A DNA stretch of 63,790 bases, counting the filler, from Stramenopiles sp. TOSAG23-6 (lineage: Eukaryota): NCBI GenBank assembly GCA_900128565.1. It is 56 parts of 56 records of this genome, joined end to end, with 100 filler letters (N's around TTAATTAATTAA, not from the genome) between each part and the next. Parts side by side here need not be neighbours in the genome. Positions count along the whole stretch, not along the records: positions 13,813 to 14,859 come from LT639865.1; 55 more parts are not named here. One strand, given 5' to 3'. The translations under genes and the position numbers were made by a program. The notes under the pieces were generated by a model. The model saw only the letters and a list, made by a program, of their open reading frames with translations, had not been told where the DNA came from and did no database searches. Within the stretch, counting starts at the first letter, position 1, and every line of letters starts with the position of its first letter. This document shows positions 12,790 through 36,570 of the stretch, one piece after another.

Positions 12790-13712
12790 TAGAAAAAGTT
12801 GGAATATTTTTGATGCCATGTGTGTATTATTTGGCTGGTTAGGTGTTTTTTTAAATATCGGAGGTTTAAGTGTAGCTCGATCTTTACGTATATTTCGTGT
12901 TGTACGAATATTTCGTGTTGTCAAATATTTTAATGGTGTAAAACATTTATTGAAGACTTTTATTTATTCATTACCTTTACTAGTGAATATTGGTGCATTG
13001 TTTCTATTAATTATATTTATATTGGCAATTATAAGTATGAATTTATTTGGAAAAGTGAAACTTCAAGAAAATTTAAATCAACATGTTTGTTTTCATTTTT
13101 AAAATTTTTGAAAATTTTTGATTTTTTTTTTTTCGTACGAAATTTTGTACCTAAACAAAATTTTATTTTTTTTTTGAAAAAAAAATTTTACATAACAAAA
13201 AAAATATTTGAACAATATTTTCACACAATATATGCAAATTTTGAAACATTTTGGGTTTCTGTATTGACATTATTTCGTGCAGTTACTGGTGAAAGTTATA
13301 ATGCAATTATGCATGATACTTTAATAAAAACGCCGTACTGTGAAGAATCAAAATGGTGGGATCAAACACGAAATATGTATAGATATAGTAATTGTGGACC
13401 GGGTACCGTGAGTGCATTCTTTTTTACATTTTCATTTACAATTACAAATTATATATTTTTGAACATTTTGATTGCAATTATTCTTGATAATTATTTAGAA
13501 GCAAGAAAATTTTCTGAAAATGTGATATCAAATGAAATATTTGAAGATTTTAATACGAAATGGACAAGTTTTGTATGTTTTTTCTTTTTTTTTTTCATAA
13601 TTTTTTTTTTCGTACGAAATTTTGTACCTAACAAAAAATTTTTTTTTTTAAAATTTTACAATATATGATAAAAATGGTGATTTATTTATACCATTAAACA
13701 AATTAGCATCAC
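12790..13712 (+). CDS. Voltage-gated Ca/Na-type cation channel, domain IV, partial
   Basis: S4 RSLRIFRVVRIFRVVK, pore LTLFRAVTGESYNAIM, S6 LNILIAIILDNY; GT-AT introns 13085-13233 (NQH|ANFETF) and 13573-13666. Confidence 0.88.
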
Positions 13713-13864
13713 NNNNNNNNNNNNNNNNNNNNNNNNNNNNNNNNNNNNNNNNNNNNTTAATTAATTAANNNNNNNNNNNNNNNNNNNNNNNNNNNNNNNN
13801 NNNNNNNNNNNNTGTACCTAACAAATTTTTTAGAATTTTTTTGAAATATTTTTCCAAAATACAT

Positions 13865-14806
13865 GTAGGTACACATTTACATATAAGTCATGAAAATACT
13901 AGGTATAAAAAACCGTATGAATTTAGTCCAACGTATCCTTCTGAATTTTTAGTCCCAATGGGTTTAAATGAATCTGAAATGCATGAAATCGCTGCATTTA
14001 GAAGTAAAGCTAGAATGCCTGCAATGACATGGATGCATCCAGTTCATCGAAGATCACTTTGGCGTTGTTCTCAACCACGTGTTGGACCTAGTAATCGTCG
14101 TAGTGTTGCAGATGAAAAGTTATTGAAATTAATCAGTGAATTACATGTTTCAATTGAAAATGATGAAATGAATAAAAATGATAAAAATACTGATATCATT
14201 AAAAAAAAAGATAAATGGGAAAAACTTTTAGTTGCCGATTGTAGACCTAGAGCAAATGCTGTAGCAAATAAAGTAGGTGGTAAAGGATATGAAAGTAGCA
14301 CGAAATATCCATTTATGACTCTTGAATTCCTAAATATACAAAATATACATGTTGTACGAAGCGCATATGAAGATTTAGTAAATGTATGTGTACTAAAAAC
14401 AAATCCACATATCTTAGATTGGGGTGAACGTGTCAATAAAGGCGGTTGGTTAAGTCACGTTCGATCTGTTCTTGCAGGTGCAATACGTGTAGCAACTGCA
14501 TTACATGTATGTTTTATTTTTTTCAATTTCAAATTTATTTATTTTTTTCATATGAAATTTCGTACCTAACAAAAAAAAAAAAAAATATTCTTCACATTAC
14601 ATGTAGAAAAACGGTCTGTTTTGGTTCATTGTAGTGATGGTTGGGACAGAACAGCTCAAATATGTTCACTTGTTCAATTAATGTTAGATCCATATTTTAG
14701 AACAGTTCGTGGATTTTGTACACTTATAGAAAAAGATTGGTTGTCATTTGGTCATCAATTTGATGAACGTCACGGATTTGGTACAAGATCAACAGATGGA
14801 AACCAT
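13865..14806 (+). CDS. Myotubularin-family phosphoinositide phosphatase, partial
   Basis: [22 protein letters not shown], catalytic [21 protein letters not shown]. Confidence 0.95.
14507..14602 (+). other. GT-AT intron
   Basis: TTA CAT|GTATG...GTACCTAAC...ATTACAT|GTA GAA gives [20 protein letters not shown]; the intron has an in-frame stop and no AG. Confidence 0.92.
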
Positions 14807-15188
14807 GTATGTTTTATTTTTTTTCAAATTCCAACTTTTTTTTTTCGTACGAAATTTTGNNNNNNNNNNNNNNNNNNNNNNNNNNNNNNNNNNNNNNNNN
14901 NNNTTAATTAATTAANNNNNNNNNNNNNNNNNNNNNNNNNNNNNNNNNNNNNNNNNNNNGTACAATATTTACTATTAAAAAAACAAATAGACAAAAAAAA
15001 TTTGAAAATTCATTCGCATTTCGTGATTCTTTGATATGCGCATAATAAAAGCATTCAGATGATTTTTGCATTGAGATTTTGATTTATATATTCAATTTCT
15101 TGAATTACAAAGAAATGAACTTGAATACATACCCTAGAAAATATTATCTGAATCATTTTTAATTTTTTTTGATAAATACGATTACAAT

Positions 15189-16005
15189 TTACAATAATTC
15201 CGTCTTCTCTTCCTGTAATAATATCTCGGAACTAGTAGTTCTAGACACTTGTCTCATTCGAACTTTAAACCCTTCATCATTTTCAGGGATCATGGCAATA
15301 ATTTTTCCTCCTCGAGTCCATGATCTTAATCTGGCTTTATAGGAAGGATTGACCAACGCTGTGCCATGTGGACCTTGAGTACCAATCAAAGTATAACCTT
15401 CAGCTTCAACTCTTTTTGCCATATCAAAAAAGGACAATGTTGCTCGATGATTATTACTGTCACTTAGTTCGCTATCAGAACAGAATCTACTGCTGTCTAT
15501 CAGTTGAATTTTAACAGAGCCATCAATTACTAAGTCGTGTAAGATATGGGACATTGAAACATGTGTAGCCACTGTAGCAAAATATGATGTAATAATAGCA
15601 TTTGTCGGAACAAATTTAGCCAAACTTCTCACTCGGTGATTCCCTCCAAAAATTTTTAAAGAGCGTGGATCGAGTATTTCGCATAAAATATTTATCTTGT
15701 CATCTCTCAATGTAATGTCATCAAGACTAGCAATAGAATCAACTGAATCACTTGACGTTTTTTCACCATTTAACATCTTATCAAATTTTTTCCTTATTTC
15801 CATATTATAGATTGTGGAGGATGCAGAAGGAGAAGGAAACATATCTTTCCCAGTTTTTGCTGCCAACATATCACGCATTACCAGTAAACTCGAAATATTA
15901 TGACTATCTGCTTCTATTGCGGGAATTCCACATGGAGCTAAAATAAGAGTTGAATTCATCTTTTCTAAGGGCACCTTTTCATATGTACGAGGCAGTAATG
16001 TCGAT
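15189..16005 (-). CDS. CASTOR/POLLUX (DMI1)-like ion channel, C-terminal RCK region
   Basis: LILA...ADSHNISSLLVMRD, ILCEILDPRS, LSFFDM...LIG...LVNP...RSW resemble the POLLUX C terminus. Confidence 0.65.
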
Positions 16006-16666
16006 NNNNNNNNNNNNNNNNNNNNNNNNNNNNNNNNNNNNNNNNNNNNTTAATTAATTAANNNNNNNNNNNNNNNNNNNNNNNNNNNNNNNNNNNNNNN
16101 NNNNNCTTGTTCATGTTCTATCACCTTATATAAATTTAATAGTTAATTAAATATAAAGTCACAACACCAAATTGCAAGGACAGAATATTAAATTATATGC
16201 TACAGCAGTCTTAGTCTTGACAAAAGAAGAGTAACGACGCACCAAAGGCAGACTTTTTAAGAAATGAAAAAAGGGGGGGGATGGCGTAATGCTGGATGGC
16301 TAATGCCAAATTAGTATTTTTTTGTGTACTAATTGTTGGACTCTACTTATACATTATCAATAGTATTTATATATAAAATAAAGTATCAGGTTGAAGAGGG
16401 TACCAGATTATATGCCTTAGTATATTTTTTTAATTTTAAACGTATTGCACACAGTAGGCAGCCTTTGAAAGCAAATAGACCTTGTACCATTTCTTTCTGT
16501 ATGTAACTCGTACACGTCCGCATTCACTTCCCGATGTCAAAACCATGCACTGGACCGTTTCACAATCATTATTTTGTTTTCTATCTTATCCAGGACTATT
16601 ATCCTAGAACGTTTCTGTTACAAGCCAGGAGGATCATTGTACCTACAGTTTGAAAGTATTTGAACG

Positions 16667-17151
16667 ATGTCACGGTCCTTAGTGTGCGTAGTGCTCGCAG
16701 TGGTCTTCACCTTTTTTCACGCGAACGCATCTGTTCTGGACTTGCCGGTAGTAGAAGGCGTCGACACGGTCCTTCTTGACGCCGGTAAGAAGCCAGATAC
16801 CGACACACCGCTTGCCCCGGACGGAAAACCAGTGTTCGCAAACGGCAAGAAAGTAAGGCAGGACGCCGGCGAGTTAGACCCGCAGCCAAGCGTTAAAACA
16901 AACGTGCAGTCCCCAAGAGTTACCGTAGTGACTTTTGTTGGAAAGAAACACGTGCGTCGGCAACCCAATCAATTAGGGGGAAATTTTACCCCACCTATAG
17001 TGTACGACGATAGGATTATTATGCGTGAGGCTAGAACAATATTTAAGGATGTAATCAGCGAATACCCAGATAGAATTCATAACGTGGGCTTGTCTGATGA
17101 CGCCAGTTGCGTGGACAAAGATCCATACTTCCCAGGCTACCGCAACCCCGC
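16667..17151 (+). CDS. Secreted protein, N terminus
   Basis: Signal-peptide-like MSRSLVCVVLAVVFTFFHANA; GC richer than its neighbours. Confidence 0.6.
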
Positions 17152-17606
17152 NNNNNNNNNNNNNNNNNNNNNNNNNNNNNNNNNNNNNNNNNNNNTTAAT
17201 TAATTAANNNNNNNNNNNNNNNNNNNNNNNNNNNNNNNNNNNNNNNNNNNNCATCGAAACAAAAAAAACAGAATATATCTTCTTCGATACCATCGAAACC
17301 AAAAGCCGTAGTAGAAGATAAACCCACCGTAACCAAAGAAGAAACATGGAAAATGGTGAAATTGTTGGGAGTTTCAGAAAATGTATTCGAACAACAATGG
17401 ACGTCTATAGCTGGACAAAATGCGACAACTGTATTGAAATCAACTTTGGATAAAGCAATGGCTTCGTTAGAGAACAGCAATACAAGAAAACACAATCTGA
17501 AATTTGGAAAAAAGAATTAATTGATTATTCATTACAACTACAGCAGAAGGCTTTTGAATTAAAAGATGCCAATAAGATATCGGAGAGCTGTAAAATATAC
17601 AAAAGG

Positions 17607-18269
17607 TTGCGTGTGCTAAGGAAACAGTTAGGAAATCTAGATTCTTTGTCTAATTCTTCTTTGGATAAACAAATTGAAATACTTGCAAAACACTATAAAT
17701 TATCTAATACTAAAAATACAGTTACAATTGATACAACACCGGCGCCTCCTTCATATCAAGACGTTTTGAAGTTAAAGAAGTTGCAAGCAACCAAATCATC
17801 TGATTTGTCAAAGGAGGCATCTACTTCGAAATCGTCATCAAGAGTTGATACTGTAAATGAGAATGATTCAACTACTAACATTATGAATAGTATTAAGCAA
17901 AAGAAGATTCGATGGAATGAATTGCGAAACAAAGCTATGAAAGCCAAAGCGGATGGTCATATTACTGAAGCTCGGAAACTTGTTGTTGAAATTCGTTCTA
18001 TTCAAGTTGAGGTGAAAACACTTGAAAACAAAATTAAATCAAAGCAAAATAATCAACAAAGCGTAGCATTGAATAAAACGAAGAACACTAAAGATAAAAA
18101 AGGAACTGCACATGAAAACTCAACCGTTACTCATGTAAATCGACTTTCATCGTTTTATTTATATTATAATCCAGATCGTATTAAACAAGAACCTACACTT
18201 GTTGAAGATACTTTGAAGAGATGGGTAGGAGAAGAAACTATTCTTTTTCAGAAACTTTGTGAAAAATAC
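17607..18269 (+). CDS. Hypothetical coiled-coil protein, partial
   Basis: Long ORF ending at donor TAC|GTATG. Confidence 0.55.
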
Positions 18270-18568
18270 GTATGTTTTATTTTTTTTCAATTTTGAANNN
18301 NNNNNNNNNNNNNNNNNNNNNNNNNNNNNNNNNNNNNNNNNTTAATTAATTAANNNNNNNNNNNNNNNNNNNNNNNNNNNNNNNNNNNNNNNNNNNNTTA
18401 GGTACAAAATTTTTATAAAAAAATAAATTCAAAATTGAAAAAAAAATAAAACATACTTGAGGATTGCGAGTTAATTGTTGAGTGAGATTTGCCTCATTTT
18501 TAGGGTTAGGGTTAGATGTATTGGGGGCATAACACATTTAAGGTTTTAAGGTTTGTGTTTATTTTTAC

Positions 18569-18741
18569 ATTTACAACCCATCAAAGCCCCTCCGGCTTGA
18601 GGAGCCCGGCTGGAGGCCCCCGGCTGGAGGCCATTAATGCAAGTTGTGTTTTTAATTGAGGTTATTTTTGTGAAATTGCAGGTATGTGATTAATGGCCTC
18701 CAGCCGGGCTCCTGCCGGAGTGGCTTAGATGGGTTGTAATG
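18569..18741. repeat. GC-rich imperfect inverted repeat (MITE/hairpin-like)
   Basis: TTACAACCCATC...CCGGCTGGAGGCCATTAAT versus ATTAATGGCCTCCAGCCGG...GATGGGTTGTAA. Confidence 0.7.
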
Positions 18742-18796
18742 TCACGCTTCGCTATTTAGACCCTAATCATTGGTGTAATGTCACGCTTCGCTATTT

Positions 18797-19321
18797 ACAA
18801 ATTGTGGTTAAAAAATTGCGGTTAAAAATTGCGGTTAAAAAATTGCGGTTAAAAATTGCGGTTAAAAAATTGCGGTTAAAAAATTGCGGTTAGTTAAACA
18901 CAACTCAAGCTAGTGGCTTTTCCTCGCTAGATAAATAATAATATTACAAAACAATAATAATAATAATATTACAAAAACAATAATAATAATAATAATAATA
19001 TTACAAAACAATAATGGTTTGTACAAAATTGCGGTTAAAAATTGCGGTTAAAAATTGCGGTTACAAAATTGCGGTTAGTTAAACACAACTCAAGCTAGTG
19101 GCTTTTCCTCGCTAGATAAATAATAATATTACAAAACAATAATAATAATAATATTACAAAAACAATAATAATAATAATAATAATATTACAAAACAATAAT
19201 GGTTTGTACAAAATTGCGGTTAAAAATTGCGGTTAAAAATTGCGGTTACAAAATTGCGGTTAGTTAAACACAACTCAAGCTAGTGGCTTTTCCTCGCTAG
19301 ATAAATAATAATATTACAAAA
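18797..19321. repeat. 185-bp tandem repeat built from AAAAATTGCGGTT and AAT subrepeats
   Basis: TAGTTAAACACAACTCAAGCTAG recurs at 18891, 19076 and 19261. Confidence 0.85.
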
Positions 19322-20152
19322 GTACATAGTGAAGATACACAGTATCTTCACAGCCCCTGCGGCGAGCAGCCCGTCCGGAGGACATTAATCACATACCTGT
19401 AACTGTCCATTTTGATTTTGAAAAACAACATAAAAAAATACANNNNNNNNNNNNNNNNNNNNNNNNNNNNNNNNNNNNNNNNNNNNTTAATTAATTAANN
19501 NNNNNNNNNNNNNNNNNNNNNNNNNNNNNNNNNNNNNNNNNNAAGCATATTTCTAGTTAGGCATTTTGGAAATGGTCGAGCTTTGCTCTCTTCCAGAAAT
19601 GTGACGCATTCCTTGTAAATGCCTACTGGTAAGCTTTTGTATGTATGTGTCTCTCTTTTTCGACACCATACAATATAGAGTAGCACACTGATAATTGGTA
19701 CAACAGGAACTGGAAAAGAGAGTATGTGTAGTAGTATGCTTATACTCAATACCATTGCTCTAGTTGATGAGAAAAATAATGAACAAAACGAACAGAAGGG
19801 TATCGTTTGATAGGCTAGGTTTAATTGATATCAAGCCGCAATATATTTAATATTAGGCTAACGCAATTTAAATTTAAGATCTCATTCAATGATTCCTTGA
19901 TTGGCCAATGATTGGTCAAAATTCCGTAGTATTATTTTGTCCAAGGTTTCGTGTATATTCCATTCTCACTAGGACTCGCTATTTTTGCTCCTACTATTAT
20001 ATTACGTATAGTCCTCCTGACAGGAAATAGGAAAACAACAGCATTAGTGTACTGTGTGTGGTAGACACATTCAGACAAAGGATCTAGTGTTGTTATAATT
20101 AAATAAAGTGTATATTGTTGATATCACACAGTTCTACATAATATATTACGAA

Positions 20153-20586
20153 ATGCCATTGAAGCGAGAACCTTCTCAGTCAACACCAGTTGCTTTACCT
20201 CCTGATGCTGTGAAAAAAATAGCAAGACGAGTATCGCAACGTATTCCAAGAGTAGAGNNNNNNNNNNNNNNNNNNNNNNNNNNNNCATTTGCTGCTGGAG
20301 GTATATCTGGTACAATCGATGCTCTTATCACAATGCCACTAGATACTATAAAAGTTCAAATGCAATGCGATAGTAAACTACGAAATCCATTCCACGCTGC
20401 TGTACAAATTATCCGCAGAGACCCAAAGAGTTTCTATGCTGGGGTTCAACCATTCGTACTTCAATGCGCTGGTAAAGCAGCAATACGTTTCTTTGCCTTC
20501 GAAAAGTTCAAGTATATTCTCGGACCTACTTCACCAGGCACAGATCTTACAAAATACGTAGGTCATACTGGCTTAGCCATGATGAG
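20153..20586 (+). CDS. Mitochondrial carrier (SLC25) protein, partial
   Basis: AGGISG...ITMPLDTIKVQMQ, FYAG...GKAAIRFFAFE. Confidence 0.9.
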
Positions 20587-24115: not shown

Positions 24116-25099
24116 ATTCTTTTTGAACCAATGGATTAGCCTTGGGAGGTGGAAGCGGAGGGAGCATACCATATCTACGCTTTTTATCATCGAGAAGTGA
24201 AGCATATAAAGCATCTAGTTTGGAACTTTGTCCTTGAGCATCATCAAAGGCATTACTCACTTCCCGTTCTTTATCATCCCACTCATAACCGAGTTTTTTG
24301 TTAGAAGGATCCTTGCGCATTGCTTTCGCTCTCTGTGTCGCAGTAATTCTTATTTGGATTGCAGCCTGTCGTCTTGCCCATGCGGCTGCATAAGACAAAT
24401 GCTGATATAATGAAACTATAGCATCTTTATGACTCCAATAAAATGGAAGCTCGCGGTAATTTGTTACTGTTTTCAATCTTTTTGCTTGCTTAAAATAGTT
24501 ATTTCCTACCTTTAAATTTCGGCTGTATTGGCTAATTACTTTCATTAAATCTTTAAGTGTGTTTTTAAATGACTCTATTGTACCTTTTACTAATTGTCCT
24601 GCTTTCTCAAACTGGGCTTCTATTGTTTTAATACATTGTCTAAAATCACGTTTTTTTCCCGCCCGCTTCATTAGACAATATAAATTATCAAATATTTCCT
24701 TACCGAAAATTTTAATACAAATGTAGATGAAATTATAGCTTGTTTTTTGTGTAGCATAATGTGTACATGTAATGCTAAAAAATATTTCAGAATACAAATG
24801 TTAAAAACATTTCTATGAAAAACAATATGTTGGGTACAAAATTTGGTATGAAAACAAAATCATCATGAAAAAGTATGTTAAAAACATTTCTATGAAAAAA
24901 AAACATGTTAGGTACAAAATTTGGTATAAAAACAAAATCATCATGAAAAAGTACATTCTCTCCGTTTTGCAAAACTAATTCCAGATTCTTTAGCGCAATT
25001 ATAGTTGGCACTATTACACCAATCTTTATCTTCTAATCTTGAGGCTCGGCATACACCATCAACACGACCATCTAATTTATCTTTATCACATTGGGAGTC
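24116..25099 (-). CDS. Hypothetical protein, spliced
   Basis: GT-AT intron 24767-24954 joins KRRE to CTHYATQK in frame. Confidence 0.6.
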
Positions 25100-25257: not shown

Positions 25258-25312
<55 letters not shown>

Positions 25313-25321
25313 TAGCAAAAA

Positions 25322-25357
<36 letters not shown>

Positions 25358-26217
25358 TAGCAAAATTAAATGATGCGTTGGGGTTAGAAGAATTATTTCA
25401 TAAGGTACTTTTATCTCATGAAAAAACGTTAGGTACAAAATTTACTAGTAAAAAAATACTTTCCTCTCATGAAAATGTCAATGAAAATTGTAGACAAATT
25501 TTCCGACATAGAAAGAAACATAATAACCCTAACCCTAATGTAAATGATAGAAAATTACGGATGTATTTACAATCTGTCAAAAGTGCGATTCAATGTGATT
25601 CAAAACAAATGACAAATATTGAAATAGAAAAGTCTATTAGTGCAATACAGTACGTTTTAGTTTTTTTCAATTTTTATCTAAATTTTTTTTCGTACGAAAT
25701 TTCGTACTTAACAAAACATTTTTTTAAAAAAAATATTTTTTCACAATATATTGTCATTGAACGAATGTGTGATGTTAATTTCATTACTGTTACTCCATTT
25801 ACCTGTGAGATTTTATTACAAATTTTACAGAAAAATAATGCTACTCGCGCTACCGAATTGTTTTTTAATAGACTGAAGATTTCACAATGTATGTTACATT
25901 ACATTCTCCATCATTTCAATGTTTGACCAATTTTTCAACCAATTTTTTTTTGTACCAAAACTTGTACCTAAAAAAAATTTGAAAAATTTGAAAAATTTGA
26001 AAAATTTGTACCTAACAAAACGTGTACAAAATTTTGAAATATTGTACAAACATTACATATACAACTATAAATGGATATTTAGAAATAATGAATTTATACA
26101 ATGATAAATTAGATTGGAAAAAAACTTTACAATTATATACAGAAGTTTTGTCAAATTATAAAGATAATTTAGAAATGAAATATCTTTCAAAGTTTCATGG
26201 TTTAGCGATAGAAGCAT
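25258..26217 (+). CDS. Hypothetical helical protein with poly-Asn, spliced (contig present five times, 25258-30867)
   Basis: Introns 25650-25751 and 25889-26058 (both GT-AT) keep the frame. Confidence 0.55.
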
Positions 26218-26399
26218 GTATGTTTTATTTTTTTTAAATTCGAATTTTTTTTCGTACGAAATTTTGTACCTAACGATTTTTTTTTGAAATATTTTTCCAN
26301 NNNNNNNNNNNNNNNNNNNNNNNNNNNNNNNNNNNNNNNNNNNTTAATTAATTAANNNNNNNNNNNNNNNNNNNNNNNNNNNNNNNNNNNNNNNNNNNN

Positions 26400-32211: not shown

Positions 32212-33020
32212 ATCTCCACCATATTGAATTACTATATTATCTGACACAATAGTCATTGGTATAGAATTATTTTCTACATACGATGGACACAACATTTCAA
32301 TTTCAGAAGTATCTAATTCAAATACAATTTCACTTTTTTGATTTTTTTCATTATTTTTTTCATTATTTTTTTCATTATTTTTTTCATTTTTTTCAAAATG
32401 ATGAAATATTCCAAATATTCCAAAATCATCAGAAGGAGTCCAAAANAGTAATGCAAAAACNCCTTGCCAGAAAAAATCATTTATTTCTAGCCATTGCTGT
32501 ACATGTAAACAGGAAAATGCTGGAGGAATTTTTACTTGAAGTAAAGATTGATGTTTATGAAATGGCATGTATTTCAGAAAAATATTTTTTTTTTTAGTAA
32601 TTTTTTTGTTAGGTACAAAATTTCGTATGAAAAAAAAATAAATTTAAAATTAAATTTAAAATTGATTTTGAAAATACATTCCAATAAGATCAGCAGCTTT
32701 TTTTGTTTGACTATTATCAAAAGTAAATGATAAACATTCATAGTTTTTCTTAGTTTTCTTAGTTTTGTTGTCTTTTTCTTTCGTACCAAAATTTGTACCT
32801 AATGAATTTTTCCGATTCAAAAACAATTTTGAATATTTTTTTTTAAATGTACTTTTTTTTGCGCATAACCCTAACCCTAATGAATTATTTTTTGTATTGA
32901 AAATATCGTCAAGAATCCAATCATGTGTATAGCCTTTAATAGTATATACATTTCCAATAATATTTGAATCAATTGAAATTGATTTTGCACGAAATGAGCA
33001 TAATCGCCGACCCATACGAT
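32212..33020 (-). CDS. Hypothetical protein, spliced
   Basis: GT-AT intron 32567-32677 joins LIGM to PFHK; flanking family introns. Confidence 0.55.
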
Positions 33021-35530: not shown

Positions 35531-36570
35531 AAAGAAATACTTTTGAAACACGATAAAATTACATTTAGTGACATCAAAATGAAAATGAAAAACATTAGAA
35601 ATCAAAAAATATTACAATTCCTCAGTCCAACAAAGGATTTTGCAAGATATCTAAAAACAAAGCTTGGTATTGATGTTTGCGGCATAAACAAACGTCTTGA
35701 AATTTTTATCATCTTGGTACAAAGGGGATTTAACCCAAGTGATGAAGATTTTCAGAAAGTAAAGTTCAAAAATAAGCAAGAGAAAGATATATTCAAAAGG
35801 GTAATAGATGTATCTAAGGTCAAAGAGGTTGAAGAAGAAATAAATGATCAAAATGATGACAGTACAAACATGGAAGAGAATGGTCAAACCAAGGGATGGG
35901 AAAATACAGCTAAACAGAGACTTGGAAAAGATATCCTTCATTGCAAGTTGAAAGAGGTGAAAGACACACTCCTGAAACACGATAAAATCACATTTAATGG
36001 GATCAAATTACCAGGCTTTGGAAATCAAAAAATATTACATTTACTTAGTCCAACAGAGAATTTTGAACGTTTTCTTGAAAATAACCGTAAAATTATGCCA
36101 TGTGACATAAAAAGACGTTTTGAAATGTTTTGGGCTTTGCTTAATAGCGGATTCAAGGTCAATGATAAAGATATTGATAAAGCTAAAATAAAAGATGAAC
36201 AAGAGAGAGTCCTTTTTAAGAGACTATTGGGGAGATTCAATGGAAAGAAAAAAAAGAATTCAATGAAAATACTTTAAGCCAAGATTTGCCAAGTGAAATA
36301 AAAGAAAGATCTTCTGAAAATGATCTTAAAGGTAATTTTGATAGGAGACGTGGCCATTTTCGCGGTAATGAATGGCATAATGACAAACTTGGTGAACGTC
36401 GTGGAGATGGTCATGCTGAGAGACCCGATGAGAGAAAATATGATGAGAACGTACATGAAGAGAGAATACCTTCAGAGAGACGTTATGAGAACAAACGTGA
36501 TGAGAGAATACTTTCTGAGAGACGTTATGAGAGAAGACCTTCTGAGAGGGGTTATGATGAGAGACGTTAT
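35531..36570 (+). CDS. Unknown protein with two ~140-aa repeats and an ERRY-rich tail (contig present three times, to 38850)
   Basis: LLKHDKITF...NQKIL..LSPT repeated; the two ORFs join across an A-homopolymer frameshift near 36250. Confidence 0.6.

Follow-up and report, generated by a model that had tools for sequence, protein, structure and literature searches.

Junctions of the intron in the myotubularin-family gene

The stretch of DNA analysed here (the window) comprises 63,790 nt, filler included, from the genome assembly of Stramenopiles sp. TOSAG23-6 (GCA_900128565.1), and within it a gene of the myotubularin family is interrupted at 14507-14602 by a 96-nt segment that starts with GT and ends with AT, one copy of a repeated family found in many unrelated genes. 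Across its junctions the sequence reads ...cattacat/GTATGTTTT...CACATTACAT/gtagaa (slashes mark splice junctions), and the flanking open reading frames (ORFs) of 231 and 85 codons are in phase only with a 96-nt intron at this position. The Pfam profile PF06602 (Myotubularin-related) is matched at 44-229 in the exon before and at 231-291 in the exon after, there from residue 2 onward. Judged from its sequence, the segment is a true intron.

Both junctions lie within copies of an 11-nt direct repeat, CATTACATGTA, with 8 matching nt in the backward direction and 3 in the forward one, and 12 registers of a 96-nt deletion would in consequence yield an identical mRNA; none of these equivalent registers is GT-AG. 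The intron is an outlier in this respect, the other introns sharing 0-7 nt between their junctions. The sole GT-AG pair of equal length, 14511-14606, was rejected on account of an in-frame TAA. A ciliate-like code, under which TAA would be sense and 14511-14606 a GT-AG intron, was likewise rejected, given the standard code and the lack of any comparable choice in the other introns.

Sample and definition of junctions

The window is built from 56 contigs of 1,026-1,054 nt, arranged by decreasing length and joined by filler of the form N44-TTAATTAATTAA-N44 (e.g., 1055-1154 and 13713-13812). Some contigs are duplicated (there are five copies of 25258-26299, reaching to 30867, three of 35531-36570, reaching to 38850, and two of 1155-2207, reaching to 3360), and 49 are unique, amounting to 50.9 kb. 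The sequence is AT-rich (per-contig GC 0.22-0.45), and ORFs of up to 350 codons with standard stops indicate that the genetic code is standard.

Forty curated 5′ junctions and 41 curated 3′ junctions from the 49 unique contigs entered the census, with a coding background taken from 20,478 nt of long ORFs (AT 0.088, T 0.283, AG 0.062). The 5′ junctions were chosen by a pattern starting with GT, and the invariance of GT is therefore partly built in. Three doubtful junctions (57523, 62062 and the donor of 61969) were left out before counting; the donor of intron 57800-57915 is uncertain; and tallies for positions +3 to +6 refer to the first 43 5′ junctions, before curation to 40. For the boundary test, made on 20 full-length copies of the family, the GT donor was fixed and a 3′ end was sought that keeps the flanking ORFs in phase, while GT-AG and GC-AG alternatives were sought up to 30 nt away from the donor and up to 45 nt away from the acceptor. 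The alignment set held 22 introns, namely 20 family copies, one copy ending in AG, and the intron of the gene for GDP-mannose 4,6-dehydratase (GMD). An ORF test of sense against antisense orientation with flexible boundaries was too noisy for use in such AT-rich sequence.

Intron and exon ends

The 3′ ends of the introns are nearly uniform: AT closes 38 of 41 (93%), GT two (57915 and 58744) and AG one (53943). At intron position -3 the bases rank C 27, T 11, A 3 and G 0, the order of a classical YAG. GT opens the intron at 40/40 donors of the pattern-selected set, and in the earlier set of 43 the following positions are A at +3 in 42, G at +5 in 37 and T at +6 in 42, with C at +4 in 11 and at +5 in one. 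Conservation at the 5′ end reaches +9, giving the consensus GTATGTTTT.

On the exon side, the dinucleotide before the donor is AT at 26 of the 40 5′ junctions, GT and TT at 4 each, AC at 2, and AA, CA, CT and GC at one each. Exon-end AT thus reaches 65% against a background of 8.8% (binomial p=2e-18), and T at exon -1 reaches 88% (35/40) against 28% (p=9e-15). Exon-end AG does not occur (0/40), a zero that is not significant by itself because its chance probability is 0.08. The downstream exon starts with G at 21/41 junctions (background 20%; p=1e-5). These figures are much like those of a preliminary description of this DNA, in which exons ended in AT before 20 of 29 introns, in T before 27 and never in AG. 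Its proposed proto-splice site MAT/G is borne out in the AT and in the G but not in the M, as exon position -3 is T 12, C 12, A 11 and G 5 (40 junctions).

No register of these introns gives GT-AG. When both ends are shifted by -2, AT-AC results in just 10 of 23 introns, and the other 13 become AT-AT (5), GT-AC (2), or AT-AA, AT-CC, GT-AT, TT-AT, CA-AT, CT-AC and TT-AA (one each); GT...AT is thus the one register with near-uniform ends. In the boundary test, an end of the form GT...xT was best or tied for reading frame in 20/20 copies, and in 13/20 it surpassed every 1-2 nt shift by a factor of 1.8 or more. Six of the 20 copies lack any in-phase GT-AG or GC-AG alternative, and in the rest such alternatives delete coding sequence. 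Pfam coordinates run gap-free across 3/3 junctions at which both exons match one family, those of GMD, myotubularin and enoyl-CoA hydratase (ECH). In the first Pfam scan only one exon of the UQ_con pair matched its family and neither exon of the helicase pair did; with a looser threshold, the first helicase exon gave a sub-threshold DEAD match only.

The preference for a GT-AT register voiced in the preliminary description is therefore sustained, by frames kept in 20/20 copies, by profiles without gaps at 3/3 junctions and by the fit of AT-AC to only 10/23 introns. Intron 11133-11224 does become AT-CC in the shifted register, as had been pointed out there, and the coordinates given for five other introns (25650-25751, 54478-54632, 13573-13666, 10540-10650 and 11133-11224) proved correct. 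Four of these have little or no junction repeat and are suited to fixing the register: the repeat is just 1 nt in 10540-10650 and in 54478-54632, it is 1+1 nt in 13573-13666, and it is absent from 25650-25751, which makes the register of the last unambiguous, given the right length. We regard it as highly likely that the segments are introns excised from GT to AT.

A repeated intron family

Copies of a conserved core (at most 1 mismatch) number 54 and occur in 24 of the 49 unique contigs, the introns that carry them being about 90-125 nt in size. In the family pattern GTATGTTTTATTTTTTTT comes first, then a variable block and TTTTTTCGTACGAAATTTTGTACCTAAC, and after an A/T spacer the pattern closes with TTGAAATATTTTTCCAAAATACAT or a ...TTCACAATAYAT variant. 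The 5′ splice site (GTAYGTTTT) is yeast-like, the conserved internal block (TTCGTACGAAATTTTGTACCTAAC, about 25 nt) holds a CTAAC that resembles a branch site, and a T-rich tract is followed by a conserved 3′ tail, TTYCAAAATAYAT, ending in YAT. The last 12 nt are far better conserved than a U2-type 3′ site requires. In 22/23 introns, all but that of GMD, a CTAAC-type motif followed by a T-rich tract lies at a median of 40 nt (range 31-56 nt) from the 3′ end. In the 22-intron alignment, pairwise identity has a median of 0.71 and a maximum of 0.91, and common blocks extend well beyond the splice signals.

In five copies an AG 11-17 nt past the branch A is skipped. The ECH intron (58744-58858) supplies one of them, a perfect T10-AG; it passes over an internal TTTTAG 17 nt after the branch A, and its junction is fixed by Pfam, PF00378 (ECH_1) stopping at 110 and restarting at 111. 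This intron is GT-GT, or GT-AC in the -2 register. Conversely, 53838-53943 is the sole GT-AG intron with reading-frame support, the AT 2 bases downstream being out of phase. In the cation channel gene, the Ion_trans profile is roughly continuous over the intron (about 164 vs 170).

Of the 15 contigs with several copies, 10 have them all on one strand, where 4.5 such contigs would be expected (p=0.001); this co-orientation fits copies lying sense in genes. The host genes are unrelated (myotubularin, cation channel, ECH, ubiquitin-conjugating E2 enzyme, helicase and MMPL-type). The introns are likely to represent one introner-like family, whose individual members are listed in Table 1 together with the features of the myotubularin-family gene.

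Table 1. Positions of the predicted introns and of associated features in the window
Feature	Position	Strand	Support
Intron, 96 nt, GTATGT...TTACAT, family copy in myotubularin-family gene	14507-14602	+	ORFs, Pfam
Upstream exon, myotubularin-like phosphatase domain	13865-14506	+	PF06602, E=5e-51
3′ end of another family intron (...CCAAAATACAT), 5′ of exon 13865-14506	ends 13864	+	
Downstream exon with CSDGWDR active-site motif	14603-14806	+	
Next family donor, GTATGTTTTATT, cut by contig end	from 14807	+	
Conserved family core with branch-site-like CTAAC (TCGTACCTAAC), 34 nt before 3′ end	14560-14570	+	
11-nt direct repeat CATTACATGTA, upstream copy over 5′ junction	14499-14509	+	
11-nt direct repeat CATTACATGTA, downstream copy over 3′ junction	14595-14605	+	
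Family intron, GTATCT...ATACAT, exon ends GT, 1-nt junction repeat	10540-10650	-	194/45 codons, no canonical alternative
Family intron, GTATGT...AATCCAT	11133-11224	-	Frames
Intron, 106 nt, GMD gene, GTAATT...CTATAT, without family core	11752-11857	+	Pfam, homologues
Family intron, cation channel gene, GTTTGT...ATATAT	13085-13233	+	99/144 codons
Second family intron of voltage-gated cation channel gene, exon ends TT	13573-13666	+	Frames
Family intron, GTACGT...ATATAT, no junction repeat, exon ends CA	25650-25751	+	Frames
Family intron, MMPL/sterol-sensing-type membrane protein gene	40529-40635	-	164/145 codons
Family intron	42668-42766	-	96/99 codons
Near-consensus family copy (GTATGTTTTATT...CCAAAATACAT)	42869-42992	-	111/166 codons
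Family intron, ubiquitin-conjugating enzyme gene	45390-45478	-	Upstream exon matches PF00179
Family intron, DEAH-type helicase gene	51733-51823	+	93/219 codons
Family-core copy ending AG, GTACGT...AAAAAG	53838-53943	+	Phase 1, 40/31 codons
Family intron, core tandemly duplicated, exon ends CT	54478-54632	-	Frames
Family intron, ECH gene, exon ends GT, intron ends ACGT	58744-58858	-	PF00378

The core's exact 24-mer had no match in metagenome, viral and prokaryote-genome contig collections. Four single matches in the same collections (L001-L004) were obtained with a looser, gapped pattern and were taken as chance because each contig, of at least 10 kb, held one core motif only. Protein searches gave no match for exon 10651-11130 (-), a best match of 47% identity and no spliced product of this organism for exon 13865-14506, and distant repeat proteins only for exon 25753-25887 against cluster representatives. 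Sequencing runs that shared words sampled from 10370-20257 numbered 24, most of them labelled as seawater metatranscriptomes; each contained only 6-14% of these words, a share from which no conclusion is drawn, on habitat or otherwise.

Several copies depart from the simple arrangement. The core is tandemly duplicated in 54478-54632 (-), 24767-24954 (-) and 25889-26058 (+), which provides some introns with a second branch-like motif; a distinct subfamily (ATACCAAATTTTGTACC...) is represented by the copy at 24767-24954. At 61969-62130 (+), only 7 nt separate a core-bearing segment, GTAAGT...TTTTAG, from a second element-like piece (GTATGTTTTC...ACAATAC); the 7 nt may be a micro-exon, or the whole may be one composite intron. 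A 40-nt exon at 4393-4432 (-) apparently lies between two family introns (...AATTACAT/exon/GTACGTCATT), an instance of dense spacing of copies. A diverged copy at about 32740-32880 (+), near 32793, is antisense within a long ORF of the - strand; its reverse complement starts with GTACAT, ends with GAAT and is in phase, and the copy could be translated or be spliced in the opposite orientation.

The GMD intron and its public gene model

As far as sequence and homology can place a junction, no GT-AT intron of the window is better anchored than the one in the GMD gene, where the family core is missing. Exon 1 ends ...GCA AT and exon 2 starts G TGG, so that the junction codon AT/G encodes Met. PF16363 (GDP_Man_Dehyd) is matched at 184-232 before the intron and at 234-332 after it, the junction codon being position 233, and alignments with homologues are gap-free in 6/6 cases, with Met in the junction column. 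No AG is present in the ~40 nt before the end of the intron or in the first ~15 nt after it. The gene stops at a TAA about where the full-length homologue P0011 ends.

The public gene model P0010 is identical to 11673-12200 in three blocks, but it uses GT-AG introns. Its first 26 residues are GMD exon 1 read out of frame, and 13 codons (about 11977-12015) are lost from it as a false intron; its Pfam score is 78 bits, against 105 bits, with the match beginning only at residue 22. A protein search with exon 11859-12200 returned P0010, a genomic gene model, as the best match, followed by one of 63%, and no transcript-derived product. Gene finders that demand GT-AG would mis-build most genes of such a genome, P0010 being the one model compared.

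Other features of the window

An interstitial telomere-like motif, TTAGGGTTAGGG, lies within the GMD coding sequence at 12025-12036, where it adds Arg-Val. It occurs ten times in the window, at six distinct loci, with none expected; the remaining sites are 4036-4047, 6537-6548 (immediately after a GTATG donor), 18500-18511, 25527-25538 (plus four duplicates), where it stands between two divergent ORF starts a few tens of bases apart, and 32869-32880. A non-coding contig at 18800-19300 contains tandem repeats of the AAAATTGCGGTTAAAA type, (AAT)n runs and G/C-rich inverted segments. The contig at 45780-46814 is entirely a perfect palindrome, with arms that are 100% complementary (45780-46091 with 46503-46814, and 46092-46268 with 46269-46445); it gave spurious Rfam matches to microRNA hairpins and looks like an amplification or assembly chimera.

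Origin of the introns and the machinery that removes them

We consider it somewhat probable that the family is an introner-like element with GTAT...ATAC ends, lying between AT...AT and spliced from GT to AT. Such an element would be small and mobile, would carry short inverted repeats at its ends, and would be flanked by two copies of AT, in the layout exon...AT/GTAT...ATAC-AT/G...exon, so that excision of the element with one AT would bring back the frame as it was before insertion. The paired AT would be a footprint left when the element entered an AT site, possibly CATG-like, either with a 2-bp duplication or by insertion between A and T. A major-type (U2-type) spliceosome would recognize the conventional 5′ site and branch site and would accept YAU for YAG, cutting from GT to AT, rarely to GT or AG, without using the nearest AG. 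A major-type spliceosome accepting YAU is the most likely machinery. No small nuclear RNA (snRNA) gene in the window, whether for the U1 with an altered 5′ end that the preliminary description offers as one reading or for any other snRNA, was matched by Rfam at the gathering threshold or at E<=1. We prefer to see the exon AT as an insertion footprint, but it may instead be a co-evolved splicing signal.

A transposon was one of three readings offered in the preliminary description, and it is the best supported of them in that the introns form one family with a block of ~25 nt; the 2-bp duplication entertained there is unproven, because the direct repeat, with intron 14507-14602 set aside, does not exceed the common AT(G). 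The same description held that ATGTAT at the donor is the exact reverse complement of ATACAT at the acceptor. This is so for the family consensus, but intron 14507-14602 itself ends in TTACAT and matches its donor (14505-14510) at 5 of 6 positions. A parallel deviation of both ends was seen once, exon GT together with intron-end GT at 58858-58744, and is not significant. Direct repeats at the junctions average 3.05 nt in the real introns and 2.76 nt with shuffled ends (p=0.05).

Several observations weigh against an inserted element. With intron 14507-14602 omitted, the shuffle test gives p=0.29, and as the repeats are no longer than shuffled ones, AT...AT could equally be a pair of splicing signals. 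The inverted repeat measures only 4-7 nt (GTAT...ATAC, ~7 nt with one gap), whereas typical terminal inverted repeats are far longer, and it is too short to separate from chance or from splice signals. T at exon -1 (88%) and A at -2 (72%) stand at levels resembling the conservation of exon -1 G and -2 A under U1 pairing. The GMD intron has the same AT/GT...AT/G junctions without the core, which favours a genome-wide splicing rule over an element footprint. No transposase was noticed in the ORFs listed, which were partly scanned, and no demonstrably intergenic copy or empty site was seen in the window. Excision at the exact bases is inferred from reading frames and protein homology, and to our knowledge U as the usual last intron base of a major-type spliceosome is unprecedented as a norm.

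Alternative explanations

It is quite possible, if short of probable, that GU-AU is the organism's normal intron rule, in which a U2-type spliceosome, still reading GUAUGU and CUAAC in the conventional way, has moved from YAG to YAU and exon-end AG has become AU in parallel. As part of the same reading, this rule would have let one small mobile intron colonise genes, and the lineage as a whole would have departed from GT-AG at the catalytic step.

Less likely is a reading in which both ATs, the one closing the exon and the one closing the intron, are splicing signals of a co-evolved spliceosome and not insertion footprints. For example, the U1 base opposite exon -1 might have changed, making CAU/GUAUGU optimal, while the 3′ site went from YAG to YAU, and the family would then simply carry the normal signals. 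The non-family GMD intron with its identical junctions speaks for this, as do the YAG-like order at intron -3 and the same order among the bases preceding AT at AT-ending exons (C 10, T 7, A 6, G 3; hand count). Junction repeats are not pair-specific, and phase-0 exons end in T in 9/9 cases although a synonymous C was available for each (hand count). On the other hand, two independent changes of recognition would be required where one footprint covers both ends; the exon AT (65%) is much less kept than the intron AT (93%); and AG is used by one family copy.

That the introns derive from U12-type (minor-spliceosome) introns, with GTATGTTTT and the 3′ tail TTYCAAAATAYAT pairing with diverged U11/U6atac and U12, is improbable. 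The 3′ terminal dinucleotide of U12-type introns is flexible, and the conservation to +9, one copy reading GTATCTTT and the conservation of the last 12 nt beyond U2-type need would all agree with such a descent. The U12-type 5′ site RTATCCTT, however, is not matched by the consensus, which against RTATCC has G at +5 in 37/43 (C in 1/43) and, often, C at +4 (11/43). The U12 branch motif, TCCTTAAC, lies ~10-15 nt from the 3′ end, whereas the branch-like motif here is a clear CTAAC at 31-56 nt; the nearest approach to TTCCTTRAC is ACCTAAC, and the 3′ tail is only loosely similar. A T-tract is present and phase 0 is the commonest phase among the introns tested, both of which also tell against a U12-type origin. 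A parallel exists in Physarum, where U12 introns with inverted ends and TA direct repeats are proposed to come from transposons (10.1101/2020.10.12.336362).

Very improbable is the reading of these segments as AT-AC introns, with the register moved by two bases and GT at +3/+4. Both registers would yield one and the same mRNA wherever the exon ends in AT (65% of introns), and 10/23 introns are AT-AC when shifted, but 13/23 are not, the homology-anchored GMD intron would be AT-AT, and GT is found at all curated donors, whereas AT is not.

Excision without a spliceosome, either through paired ends of the euglenid or hemistasiid kind or by an AT/G-specific endonuclease and a ligase, is extremely improbable. 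Both junctions have AT/G(T) in common, and of 22 introns 18-21 could form five terminal pairs, two between exon -2/-1 and intron -1/-2 and three between +1 to +3 and -3 to -5; an A/U helix of 5-6 bp could form in 16/21. This helix is unstable, with a median of +2.2 kcal/mol taken alone and a median ensemble probability of 0.09 for its best pair, which reaches at least 0.5 in 7/21 only. Variation in the 22 introns is all one-sided, with no compensatory change and the C at +4 never compensated. The third idea of the preliminary description, an RNA stem joining the two ends, is accordingly weak. Paired-end non-canonical introns do have precedents (PMC12621601; PMC11282704), but the strong GTAYGT, CTAAC and T-tract signals of the present introns are absent from the euglenid type, according to these papers. 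A conserved hairpin, GTACGAAATTTTGTAC, before the branch site was also considered and rejected, its pairs 1 and 4 being broken in 27 and 21 of 60 copies and left uncompensated.

The chance that no RNA introns are involved, and that the segments are assembly or amplification artefacts, pseudogene debris or products of ciliate-like DNA elimination, is negligible: the assembly is fragmentary, with exact duplicate contigs and one perfect palindrome, but the copies are diverged and in phase in many conserved genes that are intact, the code is standard with ORFs to 350 codons, GMD ends at its TAA as P0011 does, and the boundaries are AT, while sequences eliminated in ciliates are bounded by TA.

Significance

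Few features of nuclear splicing are as conserved as the G that ends the intron, which touches the first intron base in the catalytic centre. If excision from GT to AT is confirmed, a free-living eukaryote would have more than 90% of its visible introns ending in U, alongside textbook donor and branch sites. It would constitute a natural experiment on the choice of substrate in the second catalytic step and would show how far a spliceosome can drift in tolerating an invading element. It would also provide a case for the debates over a transposon-like spread of introns and over the nature of proto-splice-site biases, as footprints or as signals.

Comparison with known systems

Our verdict is that the GT-AT family is a variant, apparently unreported so far, among transposon-derived non-canonical introns. 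A full-text literature search found no published report of a genome with dominant GT-AT introns. Three published papers on uncultured marine stramenopile (MAST) genomes contain no discussion of introns or splice sites in their main texts, where "intron" is mentioned at most twice each and the sole match to "splice" is a reference title; their supplements might bear on the point.

Introners have been described in Micromonas, Aureococcus, Polarella, Symbiodinium and Amoebophrya (PMC7789003; PMC12130899; PMC11282704), and non-canonical transposon-related introns also occur in dinoflagellates (PMC11282704). The introners of marine protists resemble the present family in being repeated introns that multiply in the manner of transposons; many of them have direct and inverted repeats at the boundaries, and they are common in aquatic protists, stramenopiles among them. 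However, Aureococcus and Micromonas introners have canonical sites, and those of Amoebophrya have no dominant boundary pair and carry inverted repeats of 8-20 nt that form hairpins (PMC7789003), in both cases unlike what is found here. In a 2025 survey of introners, AG and AC were taken as the usual 3′ sites, and families with unfamiliar sites were kept only after inspection of transcript alignments (PMC12130899). An unannotated GT-AT family would therefore probably have been missed by that survey.

The non-conventional introns of euglenids and hemistasiid diplonemids, for which an origin from miniature inverted-repeat transposable elements (MITEs) is suspected (PMC12621601; PMC6221363), resemble the present ones in being non-GT-AG, in having repeats at the junctions and in having ends that can pair. 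They are described as having no conserved boundaries, no complementarity to U1 and no clear branch site, together with stable G/C-rich pairing, whereas the introns of the window have GT...AT, GTAYGT and CTAAC. Their stable pairing likewise contrasts with the weak A/U helix found here (+2.2 kcal/mol, 0.09).

Physarum polycephalum has thousands of young U12-type introns of the form rtatctt...aagATAT between TA repeats, for which a transposon origin was proposed; splicing restores the frame, and snRNA and branch motif have co-evolved (Larue, Elias and Roy; 10.1101/2020.10.12.336362). The short inverted ends between dinucleotide repeats recall the family described here, and GT-AT among the boundaries is shared with it. 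The Physarum introns are nonetheless U12-type (RTATCYTT, with TTTGA 10-12 nt from the 3′ end), while motifs of U2-type appearance are seen in the window, and GT-AT, the norm here, is a small minority of the 0.8% non-canonical class in Physarum.

In the appendicularian Fritillaria borealis, MITE-derived introns take their 3′ splice site from a duplicated target, TAC, and AG-AC and AG-AT dominate (Henriet et al. 2019, as reviewed in PMC11282704). As is proposed for the present protist, many introns were gained recently from small elements with inverted ends, boundaries are non-AG, the repeated target supplies the 3′ site (in Fritillaria TAC, in the window AT or CAT), and removal is ascribed to an adapted major spliceosome. 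The two systems differ in organism and in signals: Fritillaria introns have a non-canonical 5′ end and diverse boundaries, whereas those of the stramenopile combine canonical 5′ and branch sites with GT-AT in 93%.

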